Made by a program: the position numbers and the translations under genes. Under the pieces are notes generated by a model. The model had not been told where the DNA came from. It did not search any database and saw only the letters and a list, made by a program, of their open reading frames with translations. From Thermoplasmata archaeon (GTDB lineage: Archaea; Thermoplasmatota; Thermoplasmata; Lutacidiplasmatales; UBA184): a stretch of DNA of 64,000 bases. Position 1 is the first letter of the stretch, and each line of letters begins with the position of its first letter. This document shows, piece by piece, positions 1,649 through 25,906 of this stretch. Where the stretch lies: positions 32,001-96,000 of the forward strand of contig JAGWLG010000008.1 of assembly GCA_028864975.1 (NCBI GenBank). The letters run 5' to 3'.

Positions 1649-2269
1649 CTACGCCTTCGGCGGAGCGACCAACCGGGTCTGGGTCGTCCTAGCAACCCCC
1701 GCGCCGTCCGGCGGAGGTCTCCGTGTGGTGGTCGGTGTGCTCGTGGATGCCCCGCTACCAGCAAGAACCTCGCGGATGAGTCCCCGGTGTTCGCTGAACA
1801 GCCTCCTCAACAGTGAGATGTCCCCTTGAATTACCATCTCGCCGGAGTCGAAGTACACGATGTCCCACGCCCAGGCCTCGTCGATGTCTACCTCCTCCTT
1901 CAGAATCGCCATCGCGTTCCCGAGCGTCGTCCAACCCGTCGTGGTGACCGTGAGCCCCTCCTTCTGAATCTCGTCGGCGCTGAGCATCCGGATGCGCCCC
2001 CCCACCGTCGTGAGAAAGAGTTCCGCCACCTTCTGACCGCGGCGCAGGTGCACACCGGTCGTGATGAGCGCCCCGTTCAAGTTGTAGGGTTCCACGAACC
2101 GCAGGTTGACCACCGGTGGCGTCTCGTACTCCTGGAGCGATAGCTTCTGCCGGACCTCTTCCACCGGCACCCGCTTGTTCACCCGCCGCGCGATTCGGTT
2201 CAGAATCGCCTGCACCGCAATCGCCTGGACGCTCTGCTTCGCCTTCCCCAGATACTCCTTGAGCCCCAT
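1649..2269 (-). CDS. SCP2 sterol/lipid-carrier-like domain protein
   Basis: True start is MGLKEYLGK (ATG at 2269). ILKEEVDIDEAWAWDIVYFDSGEMVIQGDISLLRRL matches the C-terminal SCP2 pattern (G-x-x-x-I-x-G-D). Confidence 0.5.
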   Translation of the reverse strand: MGLKEYLGKAKQSVQAIAVQAILNRIARRVNKRVPVEEVRQKLSLQEYETPPVVNLRFVEPYNLNGALITTGVHLRRGQKVAELFLTTVGGRIRMLSADEIQKEGLTVTTTGWTTLGNAMAILKEEVDIDEAWAWDIVYFDSGEMVIQGDISLLRRLFSEHRGLIREVLAGSGASTSTPTTTRRPPPDGAGVARTTQTRLVAPPKA

Positions 2270-2280
2270 CGTTCGCCCCC

Positions 2281-3006
2281 CTACTGCTCCGCGAGCAGCC
2301 TCTCCGCGAGCCGGTCCAATACACTCGATTCGATGGTGAGCCCCTTCGACCGGTCCTGCCAGGGGACCTTGCCCAGGAAAGGAACCCCGTAGGCCGCGGC
2401 GACGTTCCCAGCGACGTCGTCGTTCCCGAACATGAAGTCGTCGTAGCCGCAGTGGGGACACTTCCTGAAGGCCATGTTCTCCAGCACGCCCACGATGGGA
2501 ACCTCCCTCGCCTGGAAAAGGCGCACGACCTTCTTCGCGTCGAGTTGGGCCACCGGGTCCGGCGTGCTGACGATGACAGCGCCCACCACCTCGTAGGTGT
2601 TCGCCAGCGCCATCATCTGCTCGGAGATTCCGGCTGGACAATCGACCACCAGGAAGTCCGTGTCCCCCCACTCTACGTTGCCGATGAACTCGTGGAGCAT
2701 CTGGGCCTTCTTCTCGCCGCCCCAGGCCGCGCCGATGTCGCTCCTCTTGACCATGGCGCTCGTCGAGATGACGCGCATCCCTTCGATAACGAGGGGGACC
2801 ATCTGGTGATTGGGCGCTGGAGGGCCGAGCTTCATCCCCTCGGCGCCAAGTTGCTGGAGAACATCTGGGCCGTCGAAATCTGCATCGCAGACCCCGACCC
2901 TCGTTCGCCAGGACAACCTCTTGGCGATGTTCAGCGAAATCCGAGTCTTTCCAACGCCGCCTTTCCCGGCACACAGCATGACCACGCGCACGGCTACCTT
3001 CCCCAC
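2281..3006 (-). CDS. mrp: Mrp/NBP35/ApbC family P-loop ATPase (Fe-S cluster carrier)
   Basis: GKGGVGKT Walker A, DADFDGP, VVDCPAG, ENM and C-terminal CPHC. Confidence 0.9.
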   Translation of the reverse strand: MGKVAVRVVMLCAGKGGVGKTRISLNIAKRLSWRTRVGVCDADFDGPDVLQQLGAEGMKLGPPAPNHQMVPLVIEGMRVISTSAMVKRSDIGAAWGGEKKAQMLHEFIGNVEWGDTDFLVVDCPAGISEQMMALANTYEVVGAVIVSTPDPVAQLDAKKVVRLFQAREVPIVGVLENMAFRKCPHCGYDDFMFGNDDVAGNVAAAYGVPFLGKVPWQDRSKGLTIESSVLDRLAERLLAEQ

Positions 3007-3041
3007 CGGGCGGAGGATGGGGTGATAGAAAAGAACTACGT

Positions 3042-3584
3042 TCAGGCCTTGGCGCGCGCTCGGCCCGTCGCCATCGACCCGAACACCGCGTTGAAGTCTC
3101 TCTGGTTGAACGGGTCCGCGGGCGGAGCGAACTCCTTCGCCATCTCGACCAGCAGGTCAGGGACCTCGGGCTTCGCCGACTCCTCCGCTAGCCCGGCGAC
3201 CGGCTTCCCAATCTCCGACATCATATCCTCCCAACCGGTCTCGCAGGCGAGGCACGTCGCGTGACGGGGAACTCCCGGCTGCGGGGCTGGGCATGGCCGC
3301 GGCGTCTTCTTCATGTGGGTGTCCACCGCGCCCTTGAACCGGCACATGTACGCGTACATATCGTCGGTCGTCGGGTCGAACGGGTGCTCGTCCATCCACT
3401 GCGCGCCGTGCCGCCCACAGCCCTTGCAGTAGTAGATTCGCTGGAGCGAGTCGTGGACGTACTGCCAGAGTTCCCGCTGGGACTTCGCGTCGGCGGGTGC
3501 GTAGTCGGCGAGGGTGAAGAAGTAGGGCCAGGTGGCGCGACCGAGCGCCGCGCGCATGTCCTCGACGCTCTGGTTGTCCGGCAT
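3042..3584 (-). CDS. Divergent ERV1/ALR-family sulfhydryl oxidase
   Basis: LGRATW...TLA followed by YYCKGCGRH (CxxC) and a helical C-terminal half. The canonical HNxVN is diverged to KGAVD. Confidence 0.65.
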   Translation of the reverse strand: MPDNQSVEDMRAALGRATWPYFFTLADYAPADAKSQRELWQYVHDSLQRIYYCKGCGRHGAQWMDEHPFDPTTDDMYAYMCRFKGAVDTHMKKTPRPCPAPQPGVPRHATCLACETGWEDMMSEIGKPVAGLAEESAKPEVPDLLVEMAKEFAPPADPFNQRDFNAVFGSMATGRARAKA

Positions 3585-3585
3585 C

Positions 3586-3780
3586 TCAGAACTTCACCGT
3601 GCCCTTCCCGCCGCAGTTCGGGCAACGCGCGGGGCACCGAATCCAGACCTTCGGGTCCACGATGGACGGGCTCGACCCACCGTCGTTGATGAGACCCAGC
3701 CCGACACACCACGGACACCGGTGGTCGTCCGCTGTCCTCCCCGCGGGAATCCCCGGCACGACCCGGTCAACGTTGAGCAC
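3586..3780 (-). CDS. Small DnaJ-type CxxCxGxG zinc-finger protein
   Basis: CPWCVGLG and CPNCGGKG. GTG start at 3780; its stop abuts the ERV start. Confidence 0.65.
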   Translation of the reverse strand: MLNVDRVVPGIPAGRTADDHRCPWCVGLGLINDGGSSPSIVDPKVWIRCPARCPNCGGKGTVKF

Positions 3781-3813
3781 GGTCTTAAGTATTGCCCCGA
3801 CATCGACCGGACG

Positions 3814-4089
3814 ATGCCCGAGTCCCCAGGGGAAGGGGAGAACCCCGTTTGCCGAACACTCGAAGAGTGCGCCGAGCGCAAGGCGCACCTGTTCTGCGAG
3901 TACTTGGACCAGGAGGAGCCGGCCCAGTGCCTCACGCTCCTGGAGAAGCTCCGCGACCACTCCTCCAGACCGGACCAGGTGAACGAGGAACTGGTGAAGC
4001 TCTACGGGGCGGACCAGGTGAAGGAGGCGAAGCACGCGGTCGCCGAGAAGCTCCGGAGTGAGCACGCCCCGAAGGCTCCCGCGTCGTAG
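3814..4089 (+). CDS. Hypothetical Cys-containing helical protein
   Basis: ATG at 3814, downstream of the divergent CTTAAGTA promoter-like site. Confidence 0.6.
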   Translation: MPESPGEGENPVCRTLEECAERKAHLFCEYLDQEEPAQCLTLLEKLRDHSSRPDQVNEELVKLYGADQVKEAKHAVAEKLRSEHAPKAPAS

Positions 4090-4092
4090 GCG

Positions 4093-4473
4093 ATGTCGAA
4101 CCTGCGCACGAAGCGCGTCGAGGTCCGCCTCTCCGAGGATGAGGACGGAGCACTCGACCGCCTTGCGCAACGGTGGCGCTGTGACCGTGCGGAAGCCATT
4201 CGACGCGCCTTCATCTCCTTCGACACGAACGGCTCCCACATCGTTTCTGTTCCTCTCGATGCGTACGACCTCGGCGTGGCTTCGACCCTCGCGCGCCGGT
4301 GGAACGTGGATGAGGGCGGCGCGGTGCGCAAGGCATTCCACGCCTTCAGCGGCCTCATGGAAATGGGTCTCGCTAACGTCATCGACCAGAGGAAGATGGA
4401 CTTCCTCGCTCGCGCCGTGGACGACCCGAGCATCGACGTGCCGCGCAAGCGACAGCCGACCCGCCATCACTGA
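4093..4473 (+). CDS. Tandem ribbon-helix-helix (CopG-like) regulator
   Basis: Two RHH-like units: KRVEVRLSEDEDGALDRLAQRWRCDRAEAIRRAF and HIVSVPLDAYDLGVASTLARRWNVDEGGAVRKAF. Confidence 0.75.
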   Translation: MSNLRTKRVEVRLSEDEDGALDRLAQRWRCDRAEAIRRAFISFDTNGSHIVSVPLDAYDLGVASTLARRWNVDEGGAVRKAFHAFSGLMEMGLANVIDQRKMDFLARAVDDPSIDVPRKRQPTRHH

Positions 4474-4572
4474 CGGACATCACCTCGAAGGGCGGTTGTA
4501 CGGCGCTACGCTCTCAGCGCCGTACGTCCCGCTATATCCCCACCCCTGTTCTCCCACTTCGAGGTCACAACG

Positions 4573-5445: not shown

Positions 5446-6372
5446 TCAGGGTGGGTTCTGTAGGGCTCGCAGCAGCCCCTCGACCGCGGTCAAGATGTTG
5501 GTGAAGCTCCCGACCCCGAGTAAGTGGAGCAACGTGGGCAGACCCAGCAACAGCGCTAGGACCGCGTAGGTCCCGTAGAAGCCCCTGGACCAGAGCTTCT
5601 CCCCCTTCCACTTGAACGCTCCTCCGATGGCGACGAACATCGGGACGACATAGAGCAGGAGCCAAGGGTTCCCGGTGTAGAGCCGCCACATCAGCATGAC
5701 GACCAGAGGCCATACCACACCGATGAGCGTGATGAACCGGGCGACCTCGCTGCCCCACCGGGTAGCTACGGTCTCGACTCCCGCGGCCATGTCCCCGGCC
5801 TGGTCGTCGATGTCCTTCGCGGTGTTGCCGAGGGTCACGAATGGAACTGTGATGGCGAGAACGGTCCAGAGCCCCGGCGAGAAGAAGCTCCCGTACACGA
5901 CCCACGCTGCCGCGATGCCGAGACCTCCTCTCGGGACTCCGAGGTTGAGCGCGTTGGGTCCCAGGTACTTCTTCCCATAGGGTGGTCGTGAGTAGACCCA
6001 AGCGAACGTGAGCGTGAGTGCATCCAGGGCAACGAAGATGGACGGCAGGAAGAGCGCGCCGACCACGATGGAGAGCAGCCAGCCGATGACGCCCACGGAC
6101 TGCACGACGCTCGCGTCCAGTTCACCGGATGCGACGGGCCGTGACTTGGTCCTCTCGTTCGTCCGGTCCGCGACCATGTCGATGGGCGAGGTCTCGTTGA
6201 TGAGGTTGCTACAGCCGTTCGCCACGACCAGCAAGCTCCCGGCGAGGAGGATGTGCAGCCACTGGTCCAGGTCCGGACCGTGACCGAGGCCCATCAGCGA
6301 GAAAACGACCGCCAGGACCAGCACCGGGAAGAGAGTGACCGGTCGGAAGAGCCGCAGCCAGGGACCTGGCAT
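5446..6372 (-). CDS. UbiA-family prenyltransferase 1 (DGGGP synthase-like)
   Basis: Multi-TM. Motifs NLINETSPIDMVAD...RPVASG and KDIDDQAGD...GVETV. ATG overlaps the upstream TAA (TAATG). Confidence 0.85.
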   Translation of the reverse strand: MPGPWLRLFRPVTLFPVLVLAVVFSLMGLGHGPDLDQWLHILLAGSLLVVANGCSNLINETSPIDMVADRTNERTKSRPVASGELDASVVQSVGVIGWLLSIVVGALFLPSIFVALDALTLTFAWVYSRPPYGKKYLGPNALNLGVPRGGLGIAAAWVVYGSFFSPGLWTVLAITVPFVTLGNTAKDIDDQAGDMAAGVETVATRWGSEVARFITLIGVVWPLVVMLMWRLYTGNPWLLLYVVPMFVAIGGAFKWKGEKLWSRGFYGTYAVLALLLGLPTLLHLLGVGSFTNILTAVEGLLRALQNPP

Positions 6373-7370
6373 TAGACCCCCGGCGCGAAGCTGCTCTTGC
6401 TCGTGCCCTTCTGTACGTAGAGGGACCGGTTGAATCCCACGAACCAGACGACCGGCGCTATAATGAGATAGAGGAAGAACCAGATGGGCATGGACCAGAA
6501 CAGCGCGATGGGTAGGAGCAGATAACTGGCCGCCTCTCCCAATCCGAGGAGCCTCATCCCCTTCGGACGGTTGTACGGCCCGCTCCGGAAGAGCTTCGCT
6601 TCGTACCCTCCGAACACGAGCACCGCGAGCAGAACTGTCACCCACCACCACCATGTCCACTCCCGGAGGAACAGCGAAATCGTCAGCACCTTAAGTGCGA
6701 CGAGGAATGTGATGAGCAGGCCGACGTCCGTGGATGTCGTCATCCGGCCCTTCTCCACTTTGCTCCCGAGCGCACGGAGCAGATTCCGTTCGTGCCCGGC
6801 CTCAAGCTCCTTCCACTCGCCGCCCCCCCATATTTGAGCTAGAACGTAACTGGTTACGAATAGGAATAGCGGCCACACTACGACACCATTCCACACTGCC
6901 GTTACAGCAAATGCGAGGAAACCGTAGCTCAACGCTATGGAAAGACCCGCTGCCAATTTGTTCTCTTTGCCCCGATGGTTATAGTAGAAACCTAGGGCGA
7001 TGAATAGGAGGAAGGGCAGGAGCGTCCACGTCGTGTGCCTCAACCCCACCAGGTAGACGAACATTGCCACGGAGATGGCCTGGCAGAGTCCGACCGCGAC
7101 CCACGCTTCGCCGAACGTCATGCGTCCTGCGATGAGCGGATGGTCGGCCTTGTCACCGGTCAGCGCGGCCTGTTTCTTGTCATACTCGTAGTCACTGACA
7201 GAGTTCTCCCCGAACGCTCCAAAATGTTCTAGCACCCCGAGCAGCACGAAGTACGGGAGCCAAATCCAGGGCGCTCCGCCGAGCCAACCGGCGAGGGCGA
7301 ACAGACCAACCTCTACCGCGGCGGTCTGGGCCCGGAAGAGGATTCCAAAGTCTCTCACTGAGGTCGGCAC
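6372..7370 (-). CDS. UbiA-family prenyltransferase 2
   Basis: Multi-TM. NSVSDYEYD...HPLIAG is present; the second acidic motif is degenerate (KELEAGHE). Confidence 0.75.
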   Translation of the reverse strand: MPTSVRDFGILFRAQTAAVEVGLFALAGWLGGAPWIWLPYFVLLGVLEHFGAFGENSVSDYEYDKKQAALTGDKADHPLIAGRMTFGEAWVAVGLCQAISVAMFVYLVGLRHTTWTLLPFLLFIALGFYYNHRGKENKLAAGLSIALSYGFLAFAVTAVWNGVVVWPLFLFVTSYVLAQIWGGGEWKELEAGHERNLLRALGSKVEKGRMTTSTDVGLLITFLVALKVLTISLFLREWTWWWWVTVLLAVLVFGGYEAKLFRSGPYNRPKGMRLLGLGEAASYLLLPIALFWSMPIWFFLYLIIAPVVWFVGFNRSLYVQKGTSKSSFAPGV

Positions 7371-8503
7371 AGGACCTCCCGTAGTCGTCGCATACAGTCC
7401 CCCGGGTTTTTCTTCAAGTCGGTCTCCCAGAACCTAATCACACTCCACCCCATGGCCCGTAATTCATTATCCTGCCGCTTGTCCTTGGCCACCACGAACC
7501 GCTGTGTGCTGTTTATTGGTCCGTCAGGGTAGAATCTCGGGTCGCAGTGCCAATACTTGCCGTCTGCGAATAGGGCGACCTTCTGTGCCCTCACAACGTA
7601 GTCAGGTTGACAGACTCCCTCAATTGGGACGTGGTCATCAAATGTCACGTTCATCTGTTCCAGGAGACTGCGTAGAGTCAACTCCGGTATCGCGTCCCTC
7701 TTGGGATACCTTCGACCGATGGCTGCGAGCCGTATCCTTTCCCTCGTCTCAGCCGGGCGCTTGCGCCCCGTATGGTACCTTCTTATGGCCGATTTCACGT
7801 ACTCACTCTTATCCCTGCATTCACGAGAGCAGAACATCTGCGGCAATGTTACACGAACACGAAACGTGCCTCCACAGGTAGGGCATACCTTCGTGGCTAT
7901 GGGTACTCTTCTGTGGAATGGGTCTGCGCCAATCACTCTGAGCCAGCATTCTCGTGAACAATACTTCTTGTCCTTCCTCCATACTTTGTGTTCTTTGCAC
8001 GCTGGGCATTGGCGTGGCGGGTGTGGTACCCTTGGTCCCCTGGAAACATTGGCTCTCCTTCGCTCAGTGAGGAACCGTTCTGGCGATGTACGCCAGAGTC
8101 TCGTCATCTTTCGTGCTTGATTTGGTCTTGGTGCTCGGACCCTCTTCAGCGTCTCAGGCTGACGCGCGAGCCATCTAGCCGCACATAACTGGGAACAGAA
8201 CTTTCTACGGGCGGCCCTACCTGGGTGACCACGGTAGTAGTCCGGTAGAACAATGGATACCCCGCAGTTGACGCACATCTTTGGGGCAGTCGGGGGGAGG
8301 TCCTTCATCCTCTGTCTCGATAGCTCACGTTGATTGAACGTGTTCGCACAGAGGTGTGAGCAGAACACTCGCTGTGTTGGTCCCTCCAGCCTCGTCCCAC
8401 ACTCACGACATACCTTTGGAGGGGTCGGAGGTAGAACTTCCATTGCTGAGGTGGACGTCGCCGCCTCCGGCCCTGTCTCCGATTCAATCGCTGGCGCTGA
8501 CAC
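7355..8503 (-). CDS. Vsr/DUF559-like endonuclease with Zn-finger repeats and NUMOD3-like motif (homing endonuclease-like)
   Basis: Repeated CxxC...FCSxxC, then HTGRKRPAETRERI, and C-terminal PDY...FADGKYWH...D...GWSVIRFWE. GC visibly lower than flanks. Confidence 0.8.
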   Translation of the reverse strand: MSAPAIESETGPEAATSTSAMEVLPPTPPKVCRECGTRLEGPTQRVFCSHLCANTFNQRELSRQRMKDLPPTAPKMCVNCGVSIVLPDYYRGHPGRAARRKFCSQLCAARWLARQPETLKRVRAPRPNQARKMTRLWRTSPERFLTERRRANVSRGPRVPHPPRQCPACKEHKVWRKDKKYCSRECWLRVIGADPFHRRVPIATKVCPTCGGTFRVRVTLPQMFCSRECRDKSEYVKSAIRRYHTGRKRPAETRERIRLAAIGRRYPKRDAIPELTLRSLLEQMNVTFDDHVPIEGVCQPDYVVRAQKVALFADGKYWHCDPRFYPDGPINSTQRFVVAKDKRQDNELRAMGWSVIRFWETDLKKNPGDCMRRLREVLCRPQ

Positions 8504-8556: not shown

Positions 8557-8577
8557 GGACGGGGAGGCTTTGAAAAC
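8557..8577. repeat. Left TSD and terminal inverted repeat
   Basis: GGACGGGGA followed by GGCTTTGAAAAC. Confidence 0.9.
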
Positions 8578-8604
8578 AGTTGACCGGAAACCGCACATCC
8601 GTTC

Positions 8605-9864
8605 TCACGCGACCCGAACCGTTCCCACGAACTGAGGGGCGATGCCGTGCTCGAACATCTCGTGGACGACCACCGACAGGTTGTAGCAGATCAGCTTCGC
8701 CAAGACCTCGTTCGCCTGGGCGACCGGCGTCCTCGACCGGATGTTCTCCCCGAACTTGCGCTTGAGGGCCGAGAAGACCGATTCGACGTTGGACCTGACG
8801 TGGTAGCTCGCGTCGAAGGCGTCCCGGCACGCCTGGAAGAGGTGGAAGGCTTTCTTCCACGCGGGGGAGCCCCCCGCGTCGGGGATCGAGTTCGACTTGA
8901 ACGGGATGAGGGCGTGGAGCCCCAGGTCCTCGGCGAGTTGGTAGTTGTCGCGGGAGAGGTATCCCTTGTCGGCGGGGACCGTCGCGGGCCTGAACCCGGC
9001 TTCGAGCGCCCCACGCACGAGCGGGGCGAACTGGGGGCAGTCCGCCGAGTTCGCGTCGCCGACCACAGCGCCAATCACGATGTGGGTCTTGGTCCCGACG
9101 ATGGCGTGGACCTTGAGCCAATGCTTCGTCCGCTTCTCGCCGTGCTTCTCCTCGCGCCAGCCGCCGAACGAGGTCGTCTGGACGCCGGTGGAGTCGGGGG
9201 AGATTGCCCCGCCGTCCTCAAGGCCGGCCAAGGGGAGGGCGCTCTGCGTCAGGAGGTGGTAGAGGACCGCCGTTGCCTCGGGGCGGTTCAGGCAGTTCGA
9301 GGAGACGGCGTAGCTCGGGGCTCGGGTGAGGAGCCCCCGGTCCGCGACATTCAGGTGGACACCGTGGGCACGGCGGGCCGAGAGCCCCGAGTATACCTTC
9401 AGAACCGCGCAGTAAAGATCGTCCTTGAAGGGGGTCGGGGCCGGTCCCGGCATCCCGACCGGGCGGGGCATGTCGGGGACGCCACTCACCAGGTCGCGGA
9501 GGAGCGAGTCCACGAGGCGCATCTCCTCGGTCTGGCCTTGGGTGTAGCTCTGGTGCTGGGCGTACTGCTTGCGAGGCTTCTTGGTCGGGAGTTCGAGGCT
9601 CTGGCCGGACTCCCGGAGCCGAAGCTCCCACGCGGCCAGGATGTGCTTGCAGGGAAGGGTCCTCTTGGAGAAGTCGGGGCACGAGCACCGACCCTCGGCG
9701 ACTCCGAGGAGTTCGACGCGGTAGCGCCCGAAACCACTCTGGGAGGGGACGCTCCACTCGCTGTCGCCCAGCCGCTCGACCTGCTCCGGGTGGAGGGCGA
9801 TTTCCCTCGCTCGGGCCATTCTCTCGGTCGTTCCTGTCAGGTCGATGGTCGCCATCTTTCGCAC
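8605..9864 (-). CDS. SWIM zinc finger + DDE_Tnp_1 (IS4/IS5-like) transposase
   Basis: CSCPDF...CKH (SWIM), DSTG, ADKGY and YHVRSNVESVFSALK (YREK signature). Confidence 0.9.
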   Translation of the reverse strand: MRKMATIDLTGTTERMARAREIALHPEQVERLGDSEWSVPSQSGFGRYRVELLGVAEGRCSCPDFSKRTLPCKHILAAWELRLRESGQSLELPTKKPRKQYAQHQSYTQGQTEEMRLVDSLLRDLVSGVPDMPRPVGMPGPAPTPFKDDLYCAVLKVYSGLSARRAHGVHLNVADRGLLTRAPSYAVSSNCLNRPEATAVLYHLLTQSALPLAGLEDGGAISPDSTGVQTTSFGGWREEKHGEKRTKHWLKVHAIVGTKTHIVIGAVVGDANSADCPQFAPLVRGALEAGFRPATVPADKGYLSRDNYQLAEDLGLHALIPFKSNSIPDAGGSPAWKKAFHLFQACRDAFDASYHVRSNVESVFSALKRKFGENIRSRTPVAQANEVLAKLICYNLSVVVHEMFEHGIAPQFVGTVRVA

Positions 9865-9871
9865 GTCCTTG

Positions 9872-9957
9872 CTACCTATATGGCGACCTACGCATATAAG
9901 GTATAGGTAGCTAGGTAGGCGCGATAGACTATAAATAGGCTAGCGCCTATTAATAGG
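9872..9957. promoter_or_regulatory. Divergent AT-rich promoter/operator between transposase and AbrB gene
   Basis: Inverted repeat CTACCTATA (9872-9880) / TATAGGTAG (9902-9910), palindrome CCTATTAATAGG (9946-9957) and several TATA boxes. Confidence 0.7.
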
Positions 9958-9959
9958 TA

Positions 9960-10169
9960 GTGAGGTCGTCGGTGGAGACAACGAAGGTGGTGATTGCCCA
10001 AGCCAAGAGCAAGTCACTCCGCACGACTATCCCGGCCGGGATTGCCCGCCAGTTCAAGATCACGGCGGAGTCGGAACTCGGATGGGAGATTGAGGCGCGA
10101 GACAACGCCCTGGTGATTGTCGTCCGTCCGGTTTCGCCGCCCGCCAGACCGAACGAGGGAAAAGCCTGA
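9960..10169 (+). CDS. AbrB/MazE/SpoVT-type DNA-binding protein
   Basis: SLRTTIPAGIARQFKITAESELGWEI is a swapped-hairpin motif. Confidence 0.8.
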   Translation: MRSSVETTKVVIAQAKSKSLRTTIPAGIARQFKITAESELGWEIEARDNALVIVVRPVSPPARPNEGKA

Positions 10170-10445
10170 AGCGATTAGTAACCCGGGAGGACAGTTTGGC
10201 GGAGGAAGTTGTTGGGCACCTAGCACGTCGCTCGGCTCACACCCTCGACTTCAAATCCGCGTTCTTGAGTCGCCGCCTTCGTGTCTGGCTGGCGCTCCGC
10301 GGTCTTGGACGAATGGGGTGAGGATGGTTTGGCTCTCGCTCGTGCCCTCAAACAAACTGCCAAGCGCAAAGCATCCTGCATCTCAGATTTCGTCTCGACC
10401 ATCGAAGACCCGGGCACAATTCGCCCAGGGGGACGAACTAGTGAC

Positions 10446-12140
10446 ATGCCAAGATCATCCGGAAGCCTTCCGACGACCGCGTTGGACTCGGTCAAGACCC
10501 TGCTTGCGGGCACAACTCCTGAAGGGTCGGATCTGCGGCGGTTCGCGTTGAACACGGGACGGTTCTACACGCACGAATTCATCGGTCGGAGATTGGCGAA
10601 GGGAATCAGCAAGGCGCTGGGCGCACGGCTGAAAGGCCCTGTTTCGATTGTCGATCCGTTCTGTGGTGACGGAAGGCTCGTTGCCTGGTTTCTGGAGGAG
10701 ATTGGCACGAAGCCGATGGCTCGCGGGACGTCTCTCTCAGTCGACCTGTGGGATTGTGACGGGGCAGCTCTAAGGCAGGCTGCGAGGAGAGTCCAAGCGC
10801 TTTCCGACGACATGGGTTCAGTCATCGTGAACAGCCACCACTGGGATTCGTTCGACGGTGCTAGGCTACAATGGGGCCGGTTCGATTTTGTCCTGACAAA
10901 TCCTCCGTGGGAACTTCTAAAGCCGGATCCCCGCCAGATGCGCGGAATGCCCAAGGACGAGGCACTGCGGTTCTCGAAGAGCCTTAGGGAGGAAGACCGT
11001 AGGCTAACCGGCCTCTATCCCGCATCAGCTCCAAGAATCAGATACGCCGGGTGGGGGCTGAATCTCTCCCGATGCGGAACGGAAGCCGCCGTATCGCTCC
11101 TCAAGCCGGGGGGCCTGGGTGGAATCGTGGTTCCTGCGTCGCTGTTCGCTGACAACTCCAGCGGCGGTGTTCGCGAGTTGCTGACGACGAAGTTCGACCT
11201 CCTGTCTATGGACTATTTTCCATCTGAGGCTCATCTATTCCCAGGGACTGACCAACCTGCGGTGTCCGCCCTCGTTCGTCGTTCTGAGCCCAACGGTGTG
11301 TCGCTCGACCTCACCGTGTTCGATCGCGGGCTTGAAATTCGCAGCAATGGGCAGCTCAAGATTTCGAGGGAGGAGCTAGAACGGACTGATTTCGTGATTC
11401 CCGGACAGCTGCCAGCAAAGAGCTATTCCATACTGAGGAAGTTGAACCGACTGGGTGCGTTCGCCGAACTAGAAGGCGCCTCTCCTGCCGACCTCGTTGC
11501 CGGAAGAGAACTAGACGAGACGAGAATCGATGAGCGGCTCTCAAGCCGCGGCACTCATCGATTCGTCAAAGGCCGTATGGTCACCCGATTTCAGTCCGAC
11601 CTTCGCTCGGCCCGTTTCCTCCTTCCGAGCGTTGAGGTCCCTCCGTCCGCGGCTCACTGGAGAATCGCCTGGAGGGATGTCTCTCGGACGACTCAGGCGC
11701 GGCGTGTCAAGGCGACACTCCTCCCGCCAGGCGTCGTCACGGGGAACTCTCTCTCAATCGCTTACTTTCGCGACGACCACATGGCCCGGCTGAAGACACT
11801 TCTAGTGATCATGAACTCGGCAGTATTCGAATTTCAAATGCGACTGTGGCTCGCGACCCCTCACATCTCCCTCGGTGGGGTGCGAAGGGGACGGCTGCCG
11901 GCAAGCTGGAGTCCTAAGCAGCTCGCCGGAATGGCCCGCGTTTGTGACGGATGCTTAGCCGGGGAGCCCTCCTCCCTGATTGAGGCGGAGGTACGAGTTG
12001 CCCAGGCATACGGACTAGACCGTCGAGAGTTCGGGGCCATTCTCGACGAGTTCGGGAGGCTCTCAACTCATGAGAAATGCCATCTACTCGATTCCGCCTG
12101 TTGGGAACGGGTTCCCGGCTGGCTGGAGAGGTCCCCGTAG
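10446..12140 (+). CDS. N6-adenine DNA methyltransferase (Alw26I/Eco31I/Esp3I-type, gamma class)
   Basis: GRFYT, IVDPFCGDG (motif I), NPPW (motif IV) and a C-terminal TRD-like region. Confidence 0.85.
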   Translation: MPRSSGSLPTTALDSVKTLLAGTTPEGSDLRRFALNTGRFYTHEFIGRRLAKGISKALGARLKGPVSIVDPFCGDGRLVAWFLEEIGTKPMARGTSLSVDLWDCDGAALRQAARRVQALSDDMGSVIVNSHHWDSFDGARLQWGRFDFVLTNPPWELLKPDPRQMRGMPKDEALRFSKSLREEDRRLTGLYPASAPRIRYAGWGLNLSRCGTEAAVSLLKPGGLGGIVVPASLFADNSSGGVRELLTTKFDLLSMDYFPSEAHLFPGTDQPAVSALVRRSEPNGVSLDLTVFDRGLEIRSNGQLKISREELERTDFVIPGQLPAKSYSILRKLNRLGAFAELEGASPADLVAGRELDETRIDERLSSRGTHRFVKGRMVTRFQSDLRSARFLLPSVEVPPSAAHWRIAWRDVSRTTQARRVKATLLPPGVVTGNSLSIAYFRDDHMARLKTLLVIMNSAVFEFQMRLWLATPHISLGGVRRGRLPASWSPKQLAGMARVCDGCLAGEPSSLIEAEVRVAQAYGLDRREFGAILDEFGRLSTHEKCHLLDSACWERVPGWLERSP

Positions 12141-12143
12141 ACA

Positions 12144-13337
12144 ATGGCCGGAGACATCACAAGGTCGGCGGGATCTGGGACGCCTGCTACGATACCAAAC
12201 CACTACTCCCCACGGCTAAGTGAACTGGACCTCCGCATGGTCAAGGCCATCCCTCCGGGGGGGAACTGGAAGTCGATTCCACTGGACATTCCGTCGAGAC
12301 GCCTCTCTCAGATACGGCGGACCTTTCTGTCGGGAAATGGCAGCAGGTCCACGTACTATGGTCGGCTTGACCCGGACATGCCGGCGTTCACAATCAGCAC
12401 CTGCATCAACAGACCCGGCAACGGTTGCTACATTCACTATGACTGGGAGGGGGGACAACACCGCCTAATTTCCCAGCGGGAGGCTGCCAGGCTTCAAAGC
12501 TTTCCGGATTGGTTCGCTTTCCAGGGCACTCGAGCCTCCGTCAATCGTCAGATTGGAAATGCCGTCCCACCCCTTCTTGCGCACCACGTAGCGCGGAAAT
12601 TGGGACGCCCGGGTGTCTTCGTCGACCTGTTCTGCGGCGCGGGTGGGCTTTCCCTCGGGTTCAAGATGGCTGGATGGACCCCACTGATTGCAGTGGACCT
12701 CGACCCGAGTGCAGTCGCCACATATGGTCAGAACGTCCACGAGTCCGTGGTCGCGGGCTCGATAGAGGACGATGCGGTTTTTGAGGCGCTGCTCGAGAAA
12801 GTTGGCGAGCTTCGGCCGTCCGACCAACCCATGTTTGTAGTGGGGGGGCCGCCGTGTCAGGGATTTTCGACCGCGGGTAATCGGCGCTCAACCGCCGATC
12901 CGAGAAACTCTCTGTTCCGCCGCTTTAGCATGTTTATCGAAGAGGCACGACCCGACGGTTTCGTTTTCGAGAACGTGCCTGGGATTCTGAGCATGGACCG
13001 CGGCCGGTTCTTCGGTGTTATCCTTCACGAACTGTCAAAGCACGTCGCCGGAGTCAGTCACTGGCAGCTTGCAGCCGTTGAATTCGGAGTTCCGCAGCGC
13101 AGGCGCCGTGTATTCGTGGTCGGGCGACGGAACCAATCCGGGAAGCTCAGCCCCCCGGCCCGCGTGACTCGCCTCCCAGACGGCCAATCCTCTTTGGATG
13201 GTGTCGCAAGAGCCATCTCGGTAAGAGAGGCCCTGAGCGATCTGCCGCCGCTAGTTGCGGGTGAAGATGGAAGCCATCTCGACTACGTTCACGCTCCAGA
13301 AGGTGCTTACCAAGAACTCATGAGGAGAGGGCGTTAG
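12144..13337 (+). CDS. Circularly permuted C5-cytosine DNA methyltransferase
   Basis: Motifs IX-X (REAARLQSFP, QIGNAVPP) precede motif I (DLFCGAGG), IV (GPPCQGFS), VI (ENV) and VIII (QRRRR). Confidence 0.9.
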   Translation: MAGDITRSAGSGTPATIPNHYSPRLSELDLRMVKAIPPGGNWKSIPLDIPSRRLSQIRRTFLSGNGSRSTYYGRLDPDMPAFTISTCINRPGNGCYIHYDWEGGQHRLISQREAARLQSFPDWFAFQGTRASVNRQIGNAVPPLLAHHVARKLGRPGVFVDLFCGAGGLSLGFKMAGWTPLIAVDLDPSAVATYGQNVHESVVAGSIEDDAVFEALLEKVGELRPSDQPMFVVGGPPCQGFSTAGNRRSTADPRNSLFRRFSMFIEEARPDGFVFENVPGILSMDRGRFFGVILHELSKHVAGVSHWQLAAVEFGVPQRRRRVFVVGRRNQSGKLSPPARVTRLPDGQSSLDGVARAISVREALSDLPPLVAGEDGSHLDYVHAPEGAYQELMRRGR

Positions 13338-13369
13338 TCCTTCGAACGCCTGGGGGAACCCGGGAGACG

Positions 13370-14668
13370 ATGACGGCACTCCAAACTGGCAATCCGACCC
13401 TCTACGCACTTGCTCTCGACCGACTCGCAAGGCACAAGAGCCAGATTGGCCGAGAATTCAAGGGACGATTCATCCAAATCTTCCTCGCTCTCAAATTCTT
13501 TCAGAACAGTATCCCGAGCATGTTTTCCGGTAAGTTCGTCTCAACTGAGTCTCTTCAAACCCTCCTCGACAACCTCTACGCTAGGCACTCTCGGCCTCCA
13601 GGCGAGTGCGTACTGATGGTGTTTGAAGGCACCTACCTCGCCCGAACTGGTGTGGTTGGTACATCGAACACTGTGGCTCAGAACACTTGGCGGAACAACT
13701 TCAACTTACAGAAGGGGGTTGGGTGCTATGCATCTCGCCAAGAACTTTCAAGTCCCACATTCCTCGCCCAGCCGCGTCATGACTGTACCCACCTCGTTCC
13801 AGCTGTCGCGGGGAGCTTGAATGGGGCCAAGTGCGCCCTCTCTCCCAGAGGAGCGGCTTATCGGAGTGAGGAGCACGCCAAGTGGTTGAGAATTGACCAC
13901 GGGGGAAATGGATATGCCGTCGCCGACCTGATGAACGTGGATAACTTCAAGGGAGTCCTCGCCCCTGGAGGCCGACGGCTGCCCGTTGACCCCCTGATTG
14001 TGGCGCTCTACCACGACGCCCTCCCGAGCAGGTCCGCGATCCGCCCCCAAGGCGTCGAAGTCAGCGATTTCAAGGCGGATTTTTCCCTCTCCCCCTCAGA
14101 ATTCTCTGCATACTTCGACGACAGCGCGTCCAATCCGGATAACGGTGCGATTCGATCCGCGTCGGGAGCGGCTCCTGTGCCCTTGGCTGGCGCCGCGACT
14201 CCAACACCGCTAGCGGCTCCCACTCCCCCTACACGTCGACCGTCAAGGGTGGCTGATTTGTCGGGCACACCCGTAGCCCCCCCGAGCGTGAACTCTGGCT
14301 GGTCTGCGGAGGAATTTGTGAGGCAGGCGTTGATTAATCTCGGGTGGGCGACCGTTAACGTTTCCAGACAGCAGCTAGGATACGACTTGCTAGGCCAGCG
14401 TGGGAAAGCGACACGCTTCTTCGAGGTCAAGAGTTCCCTAGGGTACTGTTCTCCTCGCCTCACCGAAAGAGAGTGGGAGCAGGCGACTCAGCTGGGGAGT
14501 GACTACATTCTCGCCATCATCGAGAACTTCAACCCAGATGGGACGAACGAGATTTTCTGGGTGCCCAATCCCGCCGGGACCTGTGCCGCGACCGCGTCGT
14601 TGACCACCCAGTTCGGCATTGCTCGGCATGTGTGGCAAGCCGCTGCCGTCGACTCAATCGGCCTGTAG
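13370..14668 (+). CDS. Putative restriction endonuclease with C-terminal DUF3883 (PD-(D/E)xK) domain
   Basis: AEEFV...GYDL...FEVKSS...LTEREW. Lies directly after the MTase pair. Confidence 0.75.
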   Translation: MTALQTGNPTLYALALDRLARHKSQIGREFKGRFIQIFLALKFFQNSIPSMFSGKFVSTESLQTLLDNLYARHSRPPGECVLMVFEGTYLARTGVVGTSNTVAQNTWRNNFNLQKGVGCYASRQELSSPTFLAQPRHDCTHLVPAVAGSLNGAKCALSPRGAAYRSEEHAKWLRIDHGGNGYAVADLMNVDNFKGVLAPGGRRLPVDPLIVALYHDALPSRSAIRPQGVEVSDFKADFSLSPSEFSAYFDDSASNPDNGAIRSASGAAPVPLAGAATPTPLAAPTPPTRRPSRVADLSGTPVAPPSVNSGWSAEEFVRQALINLGWATVNVSRQQLGYDLLGQRGKATRFFEVKSSLGYCSPRLTEREWEQATQLGSDYILAIIENFNPDGTNEIFWVPNPAGTCAATASLTTQFGIARHVWQAAAVDSIGL

Positions 14669-14738
14669 AATTGGCTCTCTTCGAGAAGCGTTCTCACGCC
14701 CATCGATCCGTTCTCAGAAAGGCCCCGGGGGGCTATCC

Positions 14739-14759
14739 GTTTTCAAAGCCGGACGGGGA
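14739..14759. repeat. Right terminal inverted repeat and TSD
   Basis: GTTTTCAAAGCC followed by GGACGGGGA. Confidence 0.9.
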
Positions 14760-15900: not shown

Positions 15901-16851
15901 TCACGCCAACTGGAGCGTGAAGGCGATGGTCCCGTCGCCGACCTTGGGCACCGTGGTTCCGGGTGTCACCGACCAGGTCACACCGGCTGCGCCGTTCTGG
16001 AAGCTCTGGCCTTGGAGTTGAGCCGGCGGCGCCGGACTGAAGGGTGGCAGGAACACGGTGGCCTGCAACTCCAGGTAGTGCGTGGCGTCTGCGGTGAACG
16101 TCGAGGCCTCCGTGAGGGAGTCCCCGTTCGCGGCGACCGCGGTCCCCGAGGCCGTGTAGGTCGCCGTGGAGTTCGAGGCGACCATCACCAACTGGTCGAG
16201 GATGGTCTGCCCGACGGTGTAGACCCCCAGGTCCTGCGCCTGGAACGCCTCGATGCTGGAGGCCTCCCCACCGGTCAAGGCGACCGTGGAAGGGACCTGG
16301 GTCAGCCGTACGACTCCGCCAGCGAGACGGGTCCCGACGCCGGCGCTCTGGGCGCTCCCGGTTGACCCGGTTGTGGTCTTCGCCTCCGGCCGGAAGCCGT
16401 GGATGCGGAAGGTCATCCCGGTGTTCGGCAGCAGAGCCGCCGGCACCGTCGTCCCCGCGCCACCGGCGAGGATGGCGACTGGGGTCGTGGAGCCCTTCGG
16501 CTGGTAGAGGATGTTCAGCCCCTGCGACGGGTTCGAGTAGTCGAGGGTGACGATGTCCTGGGGTTCGAGACCGACCTCGATGAGGAGGGTGACCGCACCA
16601 CCCCTGACCCCGGCCGCGGTGACGCTCGCCACCAGCACTGTCGGGAGGATGGGCTTGAAGGTCGTCTTCTGGTTGGGGTTCACCGGCACGGCGCCGAGCC
16701 CGTTCTTGAAGAGCGACGGGTCCGTTGCCGTGATGGCCTCGAACATATCGTCGGTGATGGAGAAACCACCGGCGAAGACCGAGGCGGAAGGGTTCGTCAC
16801 GTAGGCGGCCGGCGCAGCGGCGAGCGCTGTGGCGAGGGGAGGCAGAACCAT
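15901..16851 (-). CDS. Beta-rich Ala/Thr/Gly protein, putative virion structural protein
   Basis: Low-charge composition typical of virion proteins; divergent promoter upstream. Confidence 0.6.
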   Translation of the reverse strand: MVLPPLATALAAAPAAYVTNPSASVFAGGFSITDDMFEAITATDPSLFKNGLGAVPVNPNQKTTFKPILPTVLVASVTAAGVRGGAVTLLIEVGLEPQDIVTLDYSNPSQGLNILYQPKGSTTPVAILAGGAGTTVPAALLPNTGMTFRIHGFRPEAKTTTGSTGSAQSAGVGTRLAGGVVRLTQVPSTVALTGGEASSIEAFQAQDLGVYTVGQTILDQLVMVASNSTATYTASGTAVAANGDSLTEASTFTADATHYLELQATVFLPPFSPAPPAQLQGQSFQNGAAGVTWSVTPGTTVPKVGDGTIAFTLQLA

Positions 16852-22973: not shown

Positions 22974-22982
22974 GGTACTCCC

Positions 22983-23407: not shown

Positions 23408-23443
23408 GGATATCCTTAAGAATCATTGGAACATATAACTTAC

Positions 23444-23719
23444 ATGGCCGCTACGACCATCAGCATCGACTCCGGCATACTGGAGGGACTCAAGCAGTAC
23501 CGCGGGGCCGGGAAGAACTACAGCGAGGTCCTCCGCCTGTTGATGCTCTCGACCTCTCCCGAGCAGGCCCTCGCCATCCGTCGCCGGATGCAGGAAATCA
23601 ACATCGACATCGACGAGGGACGACGACCGGTCCCCGAGTCGTTCTGGCGGGAGATGAAGCGGCGCAGCAAGGAGCCCAGCCTCTCGGCGGAGGAAGTTGA
23701 CCGAAGGCTGGGTCTCTGA
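23444..23719 (+). CDS. RHH antitoxin (RelB-like)
   Basis: TTISIDSGILEGLKQYRGAGKNYSEVLRLL. Overlaps the toxin start (TGATG). Confidence 0.75.
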   Translation: MAATTISIDSGILEGLKQYRGAGKNYSEVLRLLMLSTSPEQALAIRRRMQEINIDIDEGRRPVPESFWREMKRRSKEPSLSAEEVDRRLGL

Positions 23720-24036
23720 TGCCCCTCGCCGCGCGTGCGACCTACAAGCCCGAGGCACTTAGGGACCTTGAGCACCTACCCAGAGATGTCCAACTGGCCT
23801 TCCGTAAGGCACGGGAGGCTCTCCTACGTGACCCGACGCATCCGGCGCGGAACGGGGTCGATGCCGTCCGTTACGAACACGGGTCCTGGCGGCTGAAGGT
23901 CGGCGAGTACCGGGCCATCTACTACCTGCTCCCAGGCCTCGTCGTGGACTTCTACTGCTTCGGAGAAAGGAACGCACTCTACTCCCGCTTCAAGCTCATG
24001 TTCGACCTCGGGTTCCTCCCCGAGAAGCCGGACTAG
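23719..24036 (+). CDS. relE: RelE/ParE family toxin
   Basis: ALRDLEHLP...WRLKVGEYRAIY. Confidence 0.85.
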   Translation: MPLAARATYKPEALRDLEHLPRDVQLAFRKAREALLRDPTHPARNGVDAVRYEHGSWRLKVGEYRAIYYLLPGLVVDFYCFGERNALYSRFKLMFDLGFLPEKPD

Positions 24037-24037
24037 C

Positions 24038-24409
24038 TCAGTACGGTCTCAGGAGCTTCGCTGAAGGGTCCCTCCGGTGAAGGATTCGCGCACGGTCATC
24101 GAAGTGCGTCAGGTCCCGGTCCCGGATTTCGCGGAGCTTGAAGTCGTAGAGTGCCTCGTCGCGCGTGGCCGGTCTCAGCGACCGGTCGAACTCGTCCTCG
24201 TTCATCTGGGAGGCATCGAGCCAAAAGTCCGGCTCCGGGCAACCGAGCGAGCGCACCTCTGCCTCCTCGATTCTCCGGCCGACGTCCGGTCTCGCGGTCA
24301 GAATCCCCACCTGGTGGCCGGCACTCTTGAGCGCCGCCATGATGACGCAGAGGTCCCGCCCGTGGGGACCGAACAGCGTATCGTCCAGGTCGAAGGAGAA
24401 GCCGCTCAC
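24038..24409 (-). CDS. Minimal HAD-superfamily phosphatase
   Basis: FDLDDTL (motif I), LTAR (II), K (III) and FDD (IV). Confidence 0.8.
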   Translation of the reverse strand: MSGFSFDLDDTLFGPHGRDLCVIMAALKSAGHQVGILTARPDVGRRIEEAEVRSLGCPEPDFWLDASQMNEDEFDRSLRPATRDEALYDFKLREIRDRDLTHFDDRARILHRRDPSAKLLRPY

Positions 24410-24433
24410 GAACTAGGCCACGGGTGCCGCGCC

Positions 24434-24658
24434 TTATTGAGCCTTCTCTGTACCCTCAATCTTCCAGTTCTTCGAGACGACCCCAGTTATTCGGAGCCAC
24501 CCTATGGTACACGCCAAGCTCACTAACTCCTGGACCCATAGGAACGCCGCCAGGAATCTCAGGGTCAGGTTGAGGGTCACCATCACGAGCATCGTGAACC
24601 CGATGGTGTAGACGATGACCTCCATCACCACCTGGCGCTTGCCTAGCGAGAGCGCCAT
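24434..24658 (-). CDS. Small 2-TM membrane protein
   Basis: Two hydrophobic stretches; lies between GGR and HAD. Confidence 0.6.
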   Translation of the reverse strand: MALSLGKRQVVMEVIVYTIGFTMLVMVTLNLTLRFLAAFLWVQELVSLACTIGWLRITGVVSKNWKIEGTEKAQ

Positions 24659-24661
24659 TGG

Positions 24662-25906
24662 TCAACCCGCGAGCGCCTTCCACAGCCGCCCGGCCTTCCA
24701 CAGCGTCTTGATGGGACGGAACCCTTTCTTCCTCACGAATCGGAGCAGGTCCCGCCGCACCGTGTAAGGGTTGAAGTCACCCTCCGGCATCGGGAACTCG
24801 CAGAACCAGGTGAAGAACTGGCGGAGGTCAGCGTCACTCATGGAGAGGATGGTCTGTTTCATCGCCCACCGTGCGCGCATCTCCTTCGTGTACGGACGCA
24901 CCAACGGCTCGTAGTGGTCCGGCTGACCCTCGGCGACGGTCCTCGCGGCCATGACCCCCGATGCGAGGGCCTGGTGGATGCCGCCCCCAGTCACGGGGTC
25001 GCATAGCCTGGCCGAGTCACCGATGGAGAGGACCCGACCGGCGTGCAGCGTCCTCGGTGGCCTGTAGGTCGGGATGATTCCGCCCTCGCGCTGCAAGGGC
25101 TTCGTGTCGTAGCGCGGGTTCTGCTTCAGCCACCGGTTGAAGAACGTCTTCGTGGCAATGGTTCTACCCGCCTCGTCCTTCACACTGATGGGGGTACCGA
25201 TTCCGACACGCCTTGCGGGTCTACCCTTGAACGAGCACGGGAAGTCCCAGATGTATCCGGCCGGAGAAGTAGACCCAATCCACATCCCGACCTGGTCCTT
25301 GGGTAGCACCGCATTCTCCTCGATGGTCTGCTCGAAACCCATATGGAAACTCTCGGGTTCCAGTTCCCTCACGATGCCGAACTTGCGGGAGACCCGTGCG
25401 TCGTAGCCACCGGCGTCGAGCACCCAGCGTGTCGTCACCAATCGTACAGTCTTCCCGTCCCTCACCGCGACGTGGTATCCTCCGTCCGACCTCACGACGT
25501 CCTCGACTGCGCACGAATGCCACGCCGTCAACCCCTTTGACAGCGAGAACCGTTCGAGCCTCCCCAGGAAGTCGTCCTCGTTCAGGACGAAGCCAAGGTC
25601 CCCGGCCAACAGGTTCGTGTTGTTGAGGATACGCTTCTTCTCCGGTGCGTCTCCCGGGATGAAGATGCGGAAGGAGTTGATGGGACTGGAGACGGAAGAT
25701 TCGACTGGCGGGAAGCCGAGCTTCTTCAACCAGAAGGAGGCGATGCCCGAGGTCGAGGCCGCGGGATAACCAGCGCGACCCCGGCGGTCCACCAGGAGTG
25801 CCTTGTGCGCGAGCCCGAGCTTCGCTAGTTCGTGCGCCGCCGCCTGCCCGCCGTAACCCCCGCCGACGATGACCACCTGATACGCCGTTTCCCTCCCCGG
25901 TACCAT
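24662..25906 (-). CDS. Geranylgeranyl reductase family flavoprotein
   Basis: VIVGGGYGG FAD motif, PAGYIWDFP and GDSARLCDPVTGGGIHQALASG. Confidence 0.85.
   Translation of the reverse strand: MVPGRETAYQVVIVGGGYGGQAAAHELAKLGLAHKALLVDRRGRAGYPAASTSGIASFWLKKLGFPPVESSVSSPINSFRIFIPGDAPEKKRILNNTNLLAGDLGFVLNEDDFLGRLERFSLSKGLTAWHSCAVEDVVRSDGGYHVAVRDGKTVRLVTTRWVLDAGGYDARVSRKFGIVRELEPESFHMGFEQTIEENAVLPKDQVGMWIGSTSPAGYIWDFPCSFKGRPARRVGIGTPISVKDEAGRTIATKTFFNRWLKQNPRYDTKPLQREGGIIPTYRPPRTLHAGRVLSIGDSARLCDPVTGGGIHQALASGVMAARTVAEGQPDHYEPLVRPYTKEMRARWAMKQTILSMSDADLRQFFTWFCEFPMPEGDFNPYTVRRDLLRFVRKKGFRPIKTLWKAGRLWKALAG

Follow-up and report, generated by a model that had tools for sequence, protein, structure and literature searches.

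Two UbiA-family genes and a geranylgeranyl reductase-like gene recur together on a mobile contig from a Thermoplasmata bin and on its relatives

The window studied here is a stretch of 64,000 nucleotides (positions 32001-96000) of contig C2 (119,883 bp; JAGWLG010000008.1), which was binned into a metagenome-assembled genome (MAG) of a Thermoplasmata archaeon. Window coordinates are used unless C2 is stated. On its minus strand, the window carries two adjoining genes for UbiA-superfamily membrane proteins (UbiA-1 and UbiA-2) and a separate gene for a flavin adenine dinucleotide (FAD) flavoprotein of the geranylgeranyl reductase (GGR) family; the three are referred to below as the trio. Homologues of the trio were found together on related elements, which probably use them in an isoprenoid lipid chemistry of their own. 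A first-pass annotation, made by reading the sequence of the window alone, had assigned the same genes to a lipid pathway encoded by a virus.

The UbiA pair and the GGR-like flavoprotein

UbiA-1 (5446-6372, minus strand, 308 aa) and UbiA-2 (6372-7358, minus strand, 328 aa) matched Pfam PF01040 with 93 and 44.8 bits, respectively, and both cleared its gathering cut-off of 34.2 bits, in agreement with the tandem UbiA genes described in the first-pass annotation. The pair was preceded by a gene (7355-8503, minus strand) whose product combines a Cys-rich N-terminal part with a Vsr/DUF559-type endonuclease domain (TIGR00632 vsr, E 8.6e-13; weak matches to Pfam Vsr and MTES_1575). The Vsr-like and UbiA-2 genes overlap in GTGA and the UbiA-2/UbiA-1 junction reads TAATG; therefore, the three genes form one translationally coupled operon, with the Vsr-like gene first.

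Both Asp-rich motifs are intact in UbiA-1. The first (N-x-x-x-D-x-x-x-D) is represented by N59, D65 and D69 in UbiA-1 (N59-E-x4-D65-x3-D69) and by N52, D56 and D60 in UbiA-2, and its columns were invariant in both UbiA alignments (with the host paralogues, and across the UbiA-2 clade). The second (D-x-x-D-x-x-x-D) is present in UbiA-1 as K-D-I-D-D-Q-A-G-D and missing from UbiA-2, a divergent member of the superfamily. At this position the whole UbiA-2 clade has K-(E/D)-x6-E-x-N, which was kept in 11 sequences together with a conserved C-terminal tail (NRxLW..GSAxAPGV). As judged from these alignments, the UbiA-2 site appears to be a changed site under selection and not a decayed one.

Profile scores of the pair were compared with those of digeranylgeranylglyceryl phosphate (DGGGP) synthase (DGGGPS), the UbiA-family enzyme of archaeal ether lipid synthesis. 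Expressed as bits over cut-off, the DGGGPS models (including NF009521 and NF009522) gave 50.6/269, 24.9/296 and 30.7/353 for UbiA-1, the first of these being its best NCBIfam model (PRK12884, DGGGPS-like), and 27.2/269 for UbiA-2; the host DGGGPS scored 182 and 176 bits on the same models. No DGGGPS model cut-off was reached by either protein, and no supported tree grouping with bona fide DGGGPS was obtained. UbiA-2 had no match among the PDB sequences. Like the DGGGP synthase of M. jannaschii (6M31), UbiA-1 has the PF01040 signature and both Asp-rich motifs. Unlike DGGGP synthase, it is 23% identical to the DGGGPS of the MAG, falls short of the model cut-off (50.6 against 269 bits), belongs to a separate clade on a long branch, is borne by a mobile element and is paired with a more aberrant UbiA paralogue that has no DxxxD motif.

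The GGR-like gene (24662-25906, minus strand) was called from 24662 to 25876 with a codon model trained on the MAG and applied to C2; the database call of 414 aa starts from 25906, which places the length of the protein at 404-414 aa. The product matched PDB 3OZ2 (E 8e-32) and scored 113.8 bits on TIGR02032, below the cut-off of 158.8 bits; the three host GGR genes scored 190-237 bits. On the equivalog models it reached 117.8 of 780 bits (Thermoplasmatales digeranylgeranylglycerophospholipid (DGGGPL) reductase), 96.4 of 580 bits and 40 of 700 bits. The top GGR gene of the MAG scored 493 bits on the Thermoplasmatales model, itself below cut-off.

The motifs kept in the GGR-like protein are the FAD-binding GxGxxG (VGGGYGG), the PxxYxWxFP cavity motif (PAGYIWDFP) and GDSARLCDPVTGGGI. 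The position of the catalytic Cys is occupied by Ser51, whereas all three host GGRs have Cys, and S51-T52-S53-G54 was invariant in the 19 members of the GGR-like clade. In the GGR of S. acidocaldarius, Cys47 is reported to be essential, and conservation of the Cys throughout the archaeal GGRs is likewise reported (PMC10821996). The protein thus shares with the GGRs of T. acidophilum (3OZ2) and S. acidocaldarius (3ATQ) the GxGxxG, PxxYxWxFP and GD..DP.TGGGI motifs and the overall length, and differs from them by the Ser in place of Cys47 (19/19 clade members) and by the TIGR02032 score below cut-off.

Placement by profiles and trees separated the trio from the host paralogues (18-25% identity) in well-supported clades, a result which spoke against the recent capture of host genes considered in the first-pass annotation. 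UbiA-1 and UbiA-2 were 18-23% identical to the four UbiA-family genes of the MAG (DGGGPS, MenA-like, MqnP-like and CtaB), and the GGR-like protein was 23-25% identical to its three GGR genes. In the trees, the element-borne groups were monophyletic (support 99/99 for UbiA-1 and 100/99 for UbiA-2; Shimodaira-Hasegawa-like approximate likelihood ratio test (SH-aLRT) 100 for the GGR-like clade, on a stem of 2.29 substitutions per site) and the host paralogues were placed elsewhere, on long branches. For UbiA-2, a weakly supported cellular sister group was found in one family of 45%-GC archaeal genomes (24-30% identity). The trio genes are thus not host passengers, and they represent new clades of the UbiA and GGR superfamilies, outside the DGGGPS and GGR equivalogs.

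The loss of the catalytic Cys in the GGR-like protein and of the second Asp motif in UbiA-2 could be taken as signs of decay, the three genes being drifting, cell-derived remnants that have no function on the element. This is highly improbable. The substitutions are fixed clade-wide (STSG in 19 sequences, K-(E/D)..E-x-N and the tail in 11), and all copies are full-length open frames with 36-52% identity across divergent elements, hence a pattern of purifying selection.

A different product is suggested by the aromatic prenyltransferase models, on which UbiA-1 nearly tied (TIGR01475, 48.2 bits; TIGR01474, 46.4 bits) with its score on the DGGGPS-like model (50.6 bits). The acceptor of UbiA-1, UbiA-2 or both might be an aromatic head group, as it is for UbiA, MenA and MqnP, and the flavoprotein might partly saturate the side chain in the manner of quinone-specific prenyl reductases; the outcome would be a change in host respiration or a bioactive lipid. 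Quinone prenyl reductases have been described as GGR paralogues in which the usual GGR motifs are missing (PMC10821996), and MenA-like and MqnP-like genes are present in the MAG, so quinone precursors exist. A quinone-type product is nevertheless quite unlikely: no head-group gene (polyketide, chorismate-derived or methyltransferase partner) was linked to the trio in C2, the sole PDB sequence match of UbiA-1 was DGGGP synthase (6M31, E 8.5e-5), and the GGR-like protein retains the PxxYxWxFP cavity motif typical of lipid GGRs.

The mobile contig and its relatives

The MAG (3.6 Mb, 124 contigs, 89.6% complete, 1.9% contamination) is archaeal. Its genes for geranylgeranylglyceryl phosphate synthase (GGGPS) and DGGGPS adjoin each other on contig C121, and CarS is on C53; three polyprenyl synthases, heme o synthase (CtaB), MenA-like and MqnP-like prenyltransferases and three GGR-family genes are also encoded. 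The polyprenyl synthases, GGGPS, CarS, DGGGPS and the canonical GGR were all found on other contigs and none on C2. Because the geranylgeranyl diphosphate (GGPP) synthase, GGGPS and CarS genes sit on these other contigs, the trio is not a full pathway, and the earlier proposal that the element has a lipid pathway of its own could not be upheld.

C2 carries ~221 short, mostly orphan genes, arranged in long one-strand runs, and no housekeeping genes. Matches by blastn to the other 123 contigs of the MAG were zero, and among the 39 contigs of at least 30 kb C2 was the strongest tetranucleotide outlier (r 0.957; median 0.994). C2 is thus a mobile or extrachromosomal element and not ordinary chromosome. 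AT-rich hexamers peaked at about -30 from the start codons in the MAG, in the related contig C190 (described below) and, weakly, in C2, and a -10 peak was absent; this pattern fits archaeal TATA boxes on leaderless genes, and we infer an archaeal host for C2.

Genes for a MoxR AAA+ protein (C2:1991-3154) and a VWA protein (C2:119190-119882) were found on the same strand at opposite ends of C2. The end regions considered also include C2:1-1070. Two proteins matched phrog_24053, and when compared by eye the first and last ~45 nt of C2 looked ~80% alike. A circular or longer element whose assembly was interrupted within a repeat is the probable explanation.

Close homologues of the three lipid genes were rare (6, 10 and ~27 clusters among 5.8 billion) and sat on contigs built of small orphan genes. 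As the first-pass annotation would require, the genes co-occur in relatives: UbiA-1, UbiA-2 and the GGR-like gene were found together on at least three independent elements of 60-120 kb, and in pairs on more. The full trio is present on C190 of MAG G401 (64,641 bp, 71% GC), where identities to the C2 proteins are 37.5% (UbiA-1), 37.6% (UbiA-2) and 49% (GGR-like). It is also present, with a Vsr gene, on an element of 60-63 kb recovered from four samples and contained in addition within the 156-kb contig Ga0455671_0000321 (L017, L032, L033, L035-L037); the Vsr gene (37% identical) abuts the UbiA-1 orthologue in L017, L035 and L037. According to gene tables, two 85-kb contigs carry the GGR-like gene and UbiA genes. 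The GGR-like gene was accompanied by UbiA-2 on an 87-kb contig and probably also on a 71-kb contig, where the two genes were linked through the identical length of their contigs.

The neighbourhood of the GGR-like gene was recurrent in the relatives and comprised an integrase, a 165-aa protein, ParA, two small genes, a 545-618-aa orphan, a small gene, the GGR-like gene and a PrimPol-D5 primase-helicase, with RecT, RusA, Mom, PKD proteins and DNA methylases nearby. UbiA-1 orthologues stand directly beside an integrase in L005 and C190. The GGR-like clade was almost confined to loose contigs of 12-156 kb; it occurred in 2 of 185,579 species genomes, on loose MAG contigs in both cases. No GGR-like relative and no credible UbiA-1 relative was found in 50,697 phage records, and no GGR-like relative in 72,556 plasmid records.

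A proposed three-gene set for isoprenoid lipid chemistry

Because the three genes travel together on several related elements, the best explanation is a portable set of three genes with which these elements, starting from polyprenyl diphosphates of the host, make or modify their own isoprenoid membrane compound to their own advantage; we place its probability at about 0.6. The following substrates, product and role are those that we infer. UbiA-1, which has a complete Mg2+/diphosphate site, would join a host-made polyprenyl diphosphate chain to an acceptor at the membrane. UbiA-2, with its non-canonical but conserved acidic site, would carry out a second, different transfer or act as a partner subunit, and the flavoprotein, its centre altered by the exchange of Cys for Ser, would reduce or otherwise modify the double bonds of the prenyl chain. 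The resulting isoprenoid membrane compound would be one that the host does not produce itself. It might change the membrane or surface of the host during carriage or infection, for example for an exclusion of competitors akin to lysogenic conversion, or alternatively prepare the membrane for particles.

Since the GGR-like protein has Ser for Cys and UbiA-2 has lost its second motif, the chemistry is probably not plain DGGGP synthesis and saturation. The first-pass annotation had proposed an ether lipid made and saturated by the element; this stands as one possibility among several, with a GGR-like protein that lacks the Cys and UbiA proteins below the DGGGPS cut-offs.

Temperate phages keep bactoprenol-linked O-antigen modification genes next to int/attP. 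From general knowledge, the trio is like such lysogenic-conversion cargo in that membrane-lipid-linked enzymes are carried as accessory genes, beside an integrase in several relatives; it is unlike it in its enzyme families and in its archaeal-type setting.

Several points weigh against the portable-set explanation. To our knowledge, no enzyme activity has been reported for any member of the three clades. Given its missing Cys and its TIGR02032 score, the GGR-like protein may be no prenyl reductase at all, and UbiA-2, which lacks the canonical second Asp motif, could be non-catalytic. The UbiA pair and the GGR-like gene are separated by 17 kb in the window and by 6-19 kb in the relatives, in no case within a single operon, and it is only from their co-occurrence that a shared pathway is deduced. 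The relatives are not independent samples. By BLAST, they have almost nothing in common with C2 except the trio and a ParA/Mrp-type ATPase, and the trio is therefore shared by otherwise divergent elements. Binning is the sole basis of the link between C2 and the MAG, in which a k-mer scan found no CRISPR arrays and which thus offers no spacer link between C2 and the host. C190 was binned with an Acidimicrobiales MAG, although its archaeal-type promoter geometry suggests that this binning is wrong. Finally, expression of the Vsr-UbiA-2-UbiA-1 operon may be influenced by a low-GC (~59%) insertion (8557-14759) that stops 53 bp upstream of it. The insertion looks like a transposon with a restriction-modification system on board: it encodes a SWIM-finger DDE transposase (8605-9855), an Eco57I-like protein, a C5 cytosine methylase and a NOV_C-domain protein.

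The gene content of C190 bears on a further alternative, in which the trio makes or modifies a dolichol-like polyprenyl-phosphate carrier or a lipid-linked sugar and so alters the surface glycosylation of the host. Positions 1-15600 of C190 encode a GDP-mannose 4,6-dehydratase, three or four glycosyltransferases (GT1/GT4 and GT2), a methyltransferase, a 533-aa coiled-coil protein and an 854-aa S8 protease/PKD protein, and this block looks like a surface-glycan module. A sugar epimerase/dehydratase is encoded on L015, and the integrases adjoining the UbiA-1 orthologues of L005 and C190 would suit conversion cargo of this kind. The UbiA superfamily includes decaprenyl-phosphate phosphoribosyltransferase, models of which appeared as weak NCBIfam rows, and in Haloferax a GGR paralogue saturates dolichol (PMC10821996). 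However, the families listed for C2 included no glycosyltransferase, the phosphoribosyltransferase models were matched far below cut-off and less well than the DGGGPS-like ones, and evidence of a flippase or an oligosaccharyltransferase was absent. We regard a role in glycan or lipid-carrier conversion as somewhat unlikely and favour a portable set that acts on an isoprenoid lipid of the element.

The prevailing view is that archaeal viruses and plasmids obtain their lipids from the host. In the literature searched, no paper was found in which an archaeal virus or plasmid carries lipid genes of the UbiA or GGR type, and UbiA and GGR terms are absent from the main text of a 2026 survey that covers 3,708 archaeal viral genomes. 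The conservation of the trio across divergent elements, its distinctness from the host paralogues and its altered catalytic sites point to an element-specific lipid chemistry. The trio provides a testable entry to the ways in which archaeal mobile elements manipulate membranes, offers two uncharacterised UbiA clades and a Cys-less GGR clade to enzymology, and may serve as a marker set for an element family missed by current virus-detection pipelines.

Small neighbours and the nature of the element

The GGR-like gene is followed, 3 nt downstream, by a gene for a 74-aa protein with two hydrophobic transmembrane (TM) helices (24434-24658, minus strand; no family match in Pfam or NCBIfam) and, 24 nt beyond it, by a gene for a 123-aa HAD-like protein (24038-24409, minus strand). 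The co-orientation of the three genes across 24038-25906, which had been pointed out before, is correct. The description of the 123-aa protein as a HAD phosphatase held in part: FSFDLDDTLF, VGILTAR, K and FDD were read by eye in the translation as HAD motifs I-IV, but no Pfam, NCBIfam or PDB sequence match was obtained, even at E<=5 to 10. A single-sequence AlphaFold2 (AF2) model of the protein was poor (predicted local distance difference test score (pLDDT) 53), with a beta-alpha-beta-alpha-beta order; Foldseek with this model returned nothing at E<=0.001 and several HAD enzymes among the rows at E 0.1-0.3. Judging by the motifs, a small capless phosphatase is possible. In C2 only, the HAD-like and 2-TM proteins may add a dephosphorylation or membrane step to the chemistry proposed for the trio.

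In divergent orientation from the GGR-like gene lies a gene for a 164-aa Cys-rich protein (25938-26432, plus strand). A weak, sub-threshold match of this protein (E 5.9e-4; 20 bits, cut-off 25.6 bits) covered the end of the phage terminase gpA ATPase domain and probably reflects a zinc ribbon only.

The orphan protein of 206 aa encoded at 1649-2269 (minus strand) had been read as SCP2-like and counted as a lipid carrier. It had no match in Pfam (E<=5), NCBIfam or the PDB sequences, SCP2 (PF02036) included, and is probably not part of the lipid set. Its gene follows that of an Mrp/NBP35-type P-loop ATPase (2281-3006, minus strand; PF10609, 132.7 bits), which adjoins a gene for an Erv1/Alr-family sulfhydryl oxidase-like protein (3042-3584, minus strand; Pfam 37.5 bits, cut-off 27.6 bits). 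Erv1/Alr proteins are unusual outside eukaryotes and their large DNA viruses. The 206-aa protein was also considered as a counterpart of the protein that follows ParA in the relatives and was rejected (hhalign probability 1.3%). None of the HAD-like, 2-TM, 206-aa and Erv1-like genes was found on the related elements compared; as the HAD-like and "SCP2" genes are not conserved there, the conserved unit consists of three genes and not five.

Pfam and PHROGs were scanned with 129 C2 proteins of at least 100 aa and 60 C190 proteins. The families listed for C2 included DUF5131, DUF1643, NADAR, MazG, DnaJ, JAB, HNH, several DNA methylases, a Toprim-type protein, RNA ligase, MoxR and VWA, and integrase- and transposase-like families. 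Capsid, portal and terminase were not among the matches listed for either contig, so "virus" is unproven for C2; novel capsid folds are possible. The tyrosine integrase PF00589 had seven matches in the MAG and none on C2, and PHROGs gave integrase-like families for one C2 protein. Direct scans found no family for the large proteins of a putative virion block, and in the 546-aa ATPase (55960-57600) the P-loop stretch alone was matched. IMG/VR contained no relative of UbiA-1, UbiA-2 or the GGR-like protein when the three proteins and the GGR-like alignment were used as queries. By megablast, no match was obtained for 1-25000 against the plasmids or for 25001-50000 against the 50,697 phage records.

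These results bear on the full claim of the first-pass annotation, a large archaeal virus with a five-part envelope ether-lipid pathway (two UbiA proteins, GGR, HAD and SCP2). The small-gene architecture and phage-type accessory genes of C2 agree with it, as do RecT, RusA, Mom, integrase and PKD-domain proteins on the related elements. Language-model look-alikes of a 213-aa protein (30105-30746) were viral hypothetical proteins, at a score (0.87) under the reliability line of the tool; the same search with a second protein of the "virion block" gave nothing. Against the claim stand the lack of a virion hallmark among the matches listed for C2 and for its fully read relative C190, the lack of an IMG/VR relative, an ATPase recognisable by its P-loop only, a DUF6744 model that has no capsid fold, an unsupported SCP2, HAD-like and 2-TM genes that are not conserved, and precursor enzymes encoded only on other contigs of the MAG. 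A five-part viral pathway is therefore doubtful. It is likewise unlikely that the 60-156 kb high-GC contigs represent an undescribed archaeal virus lineage with no recognisable capsid genes, whose non-canonical isoprenoid-lipid enzymes (a DGGGPS-like transferase, an aberrant second UbiA and a Cys-less GGR) would make a lipid foreign to the host for the virion membrane or for the remodelling of infected cells; if true, this would be the first lipid synthesis encoded by an archaeal virus. C2 may be a virus or a plasmid, and the portable three-gene set is proposed for either type of element.

Two candidates for virion proteins were rejected. The DUF6744 protein (C2:114617-115696, minus strand), which shows strong codon adaptation and was the best-conserved large orphan folded, had 116 distant homologues; its AF2 model, from a 60-sequence alignment (pLDDT 81.5, predicted TM-score (pTM) 0.79), was not HK97-like and had no PDB match by Foldseek at E<=0.001. 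The protein was thus not accepted as evidence of a capsid, and it appears, from the model, to have a confidently predicted fold that has no solved relative. The left arm of C190 (510, 391, 340 aa and further proteins) was considered as a terminase-portal-capsid block and found instead to hold the glycosyltransferases, methyltransferase, coiled-coil protein and S8 protease/PKD protein described above.

ARAGORN reported a tRNA-Arg(GCG) at 16495-16583, which sits within an open reading frame and is probably spurious. A tRNA-Ala(GGC) at 39816-39889 (plus strand) closes the plus-strand gene block and had no near-identical copy in the MAG by blastn. In the same region, a gene at 39138-39422 (plus strand) encodes a 94-aa protein that has three hydrophobic helices and shows very high codon adaptation. 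As one of the few non-lipid gene products that C2 and the 60-kb element have in common (38% identity over 61 aa, L017), it could belong to the conserved membrane components of these elements.

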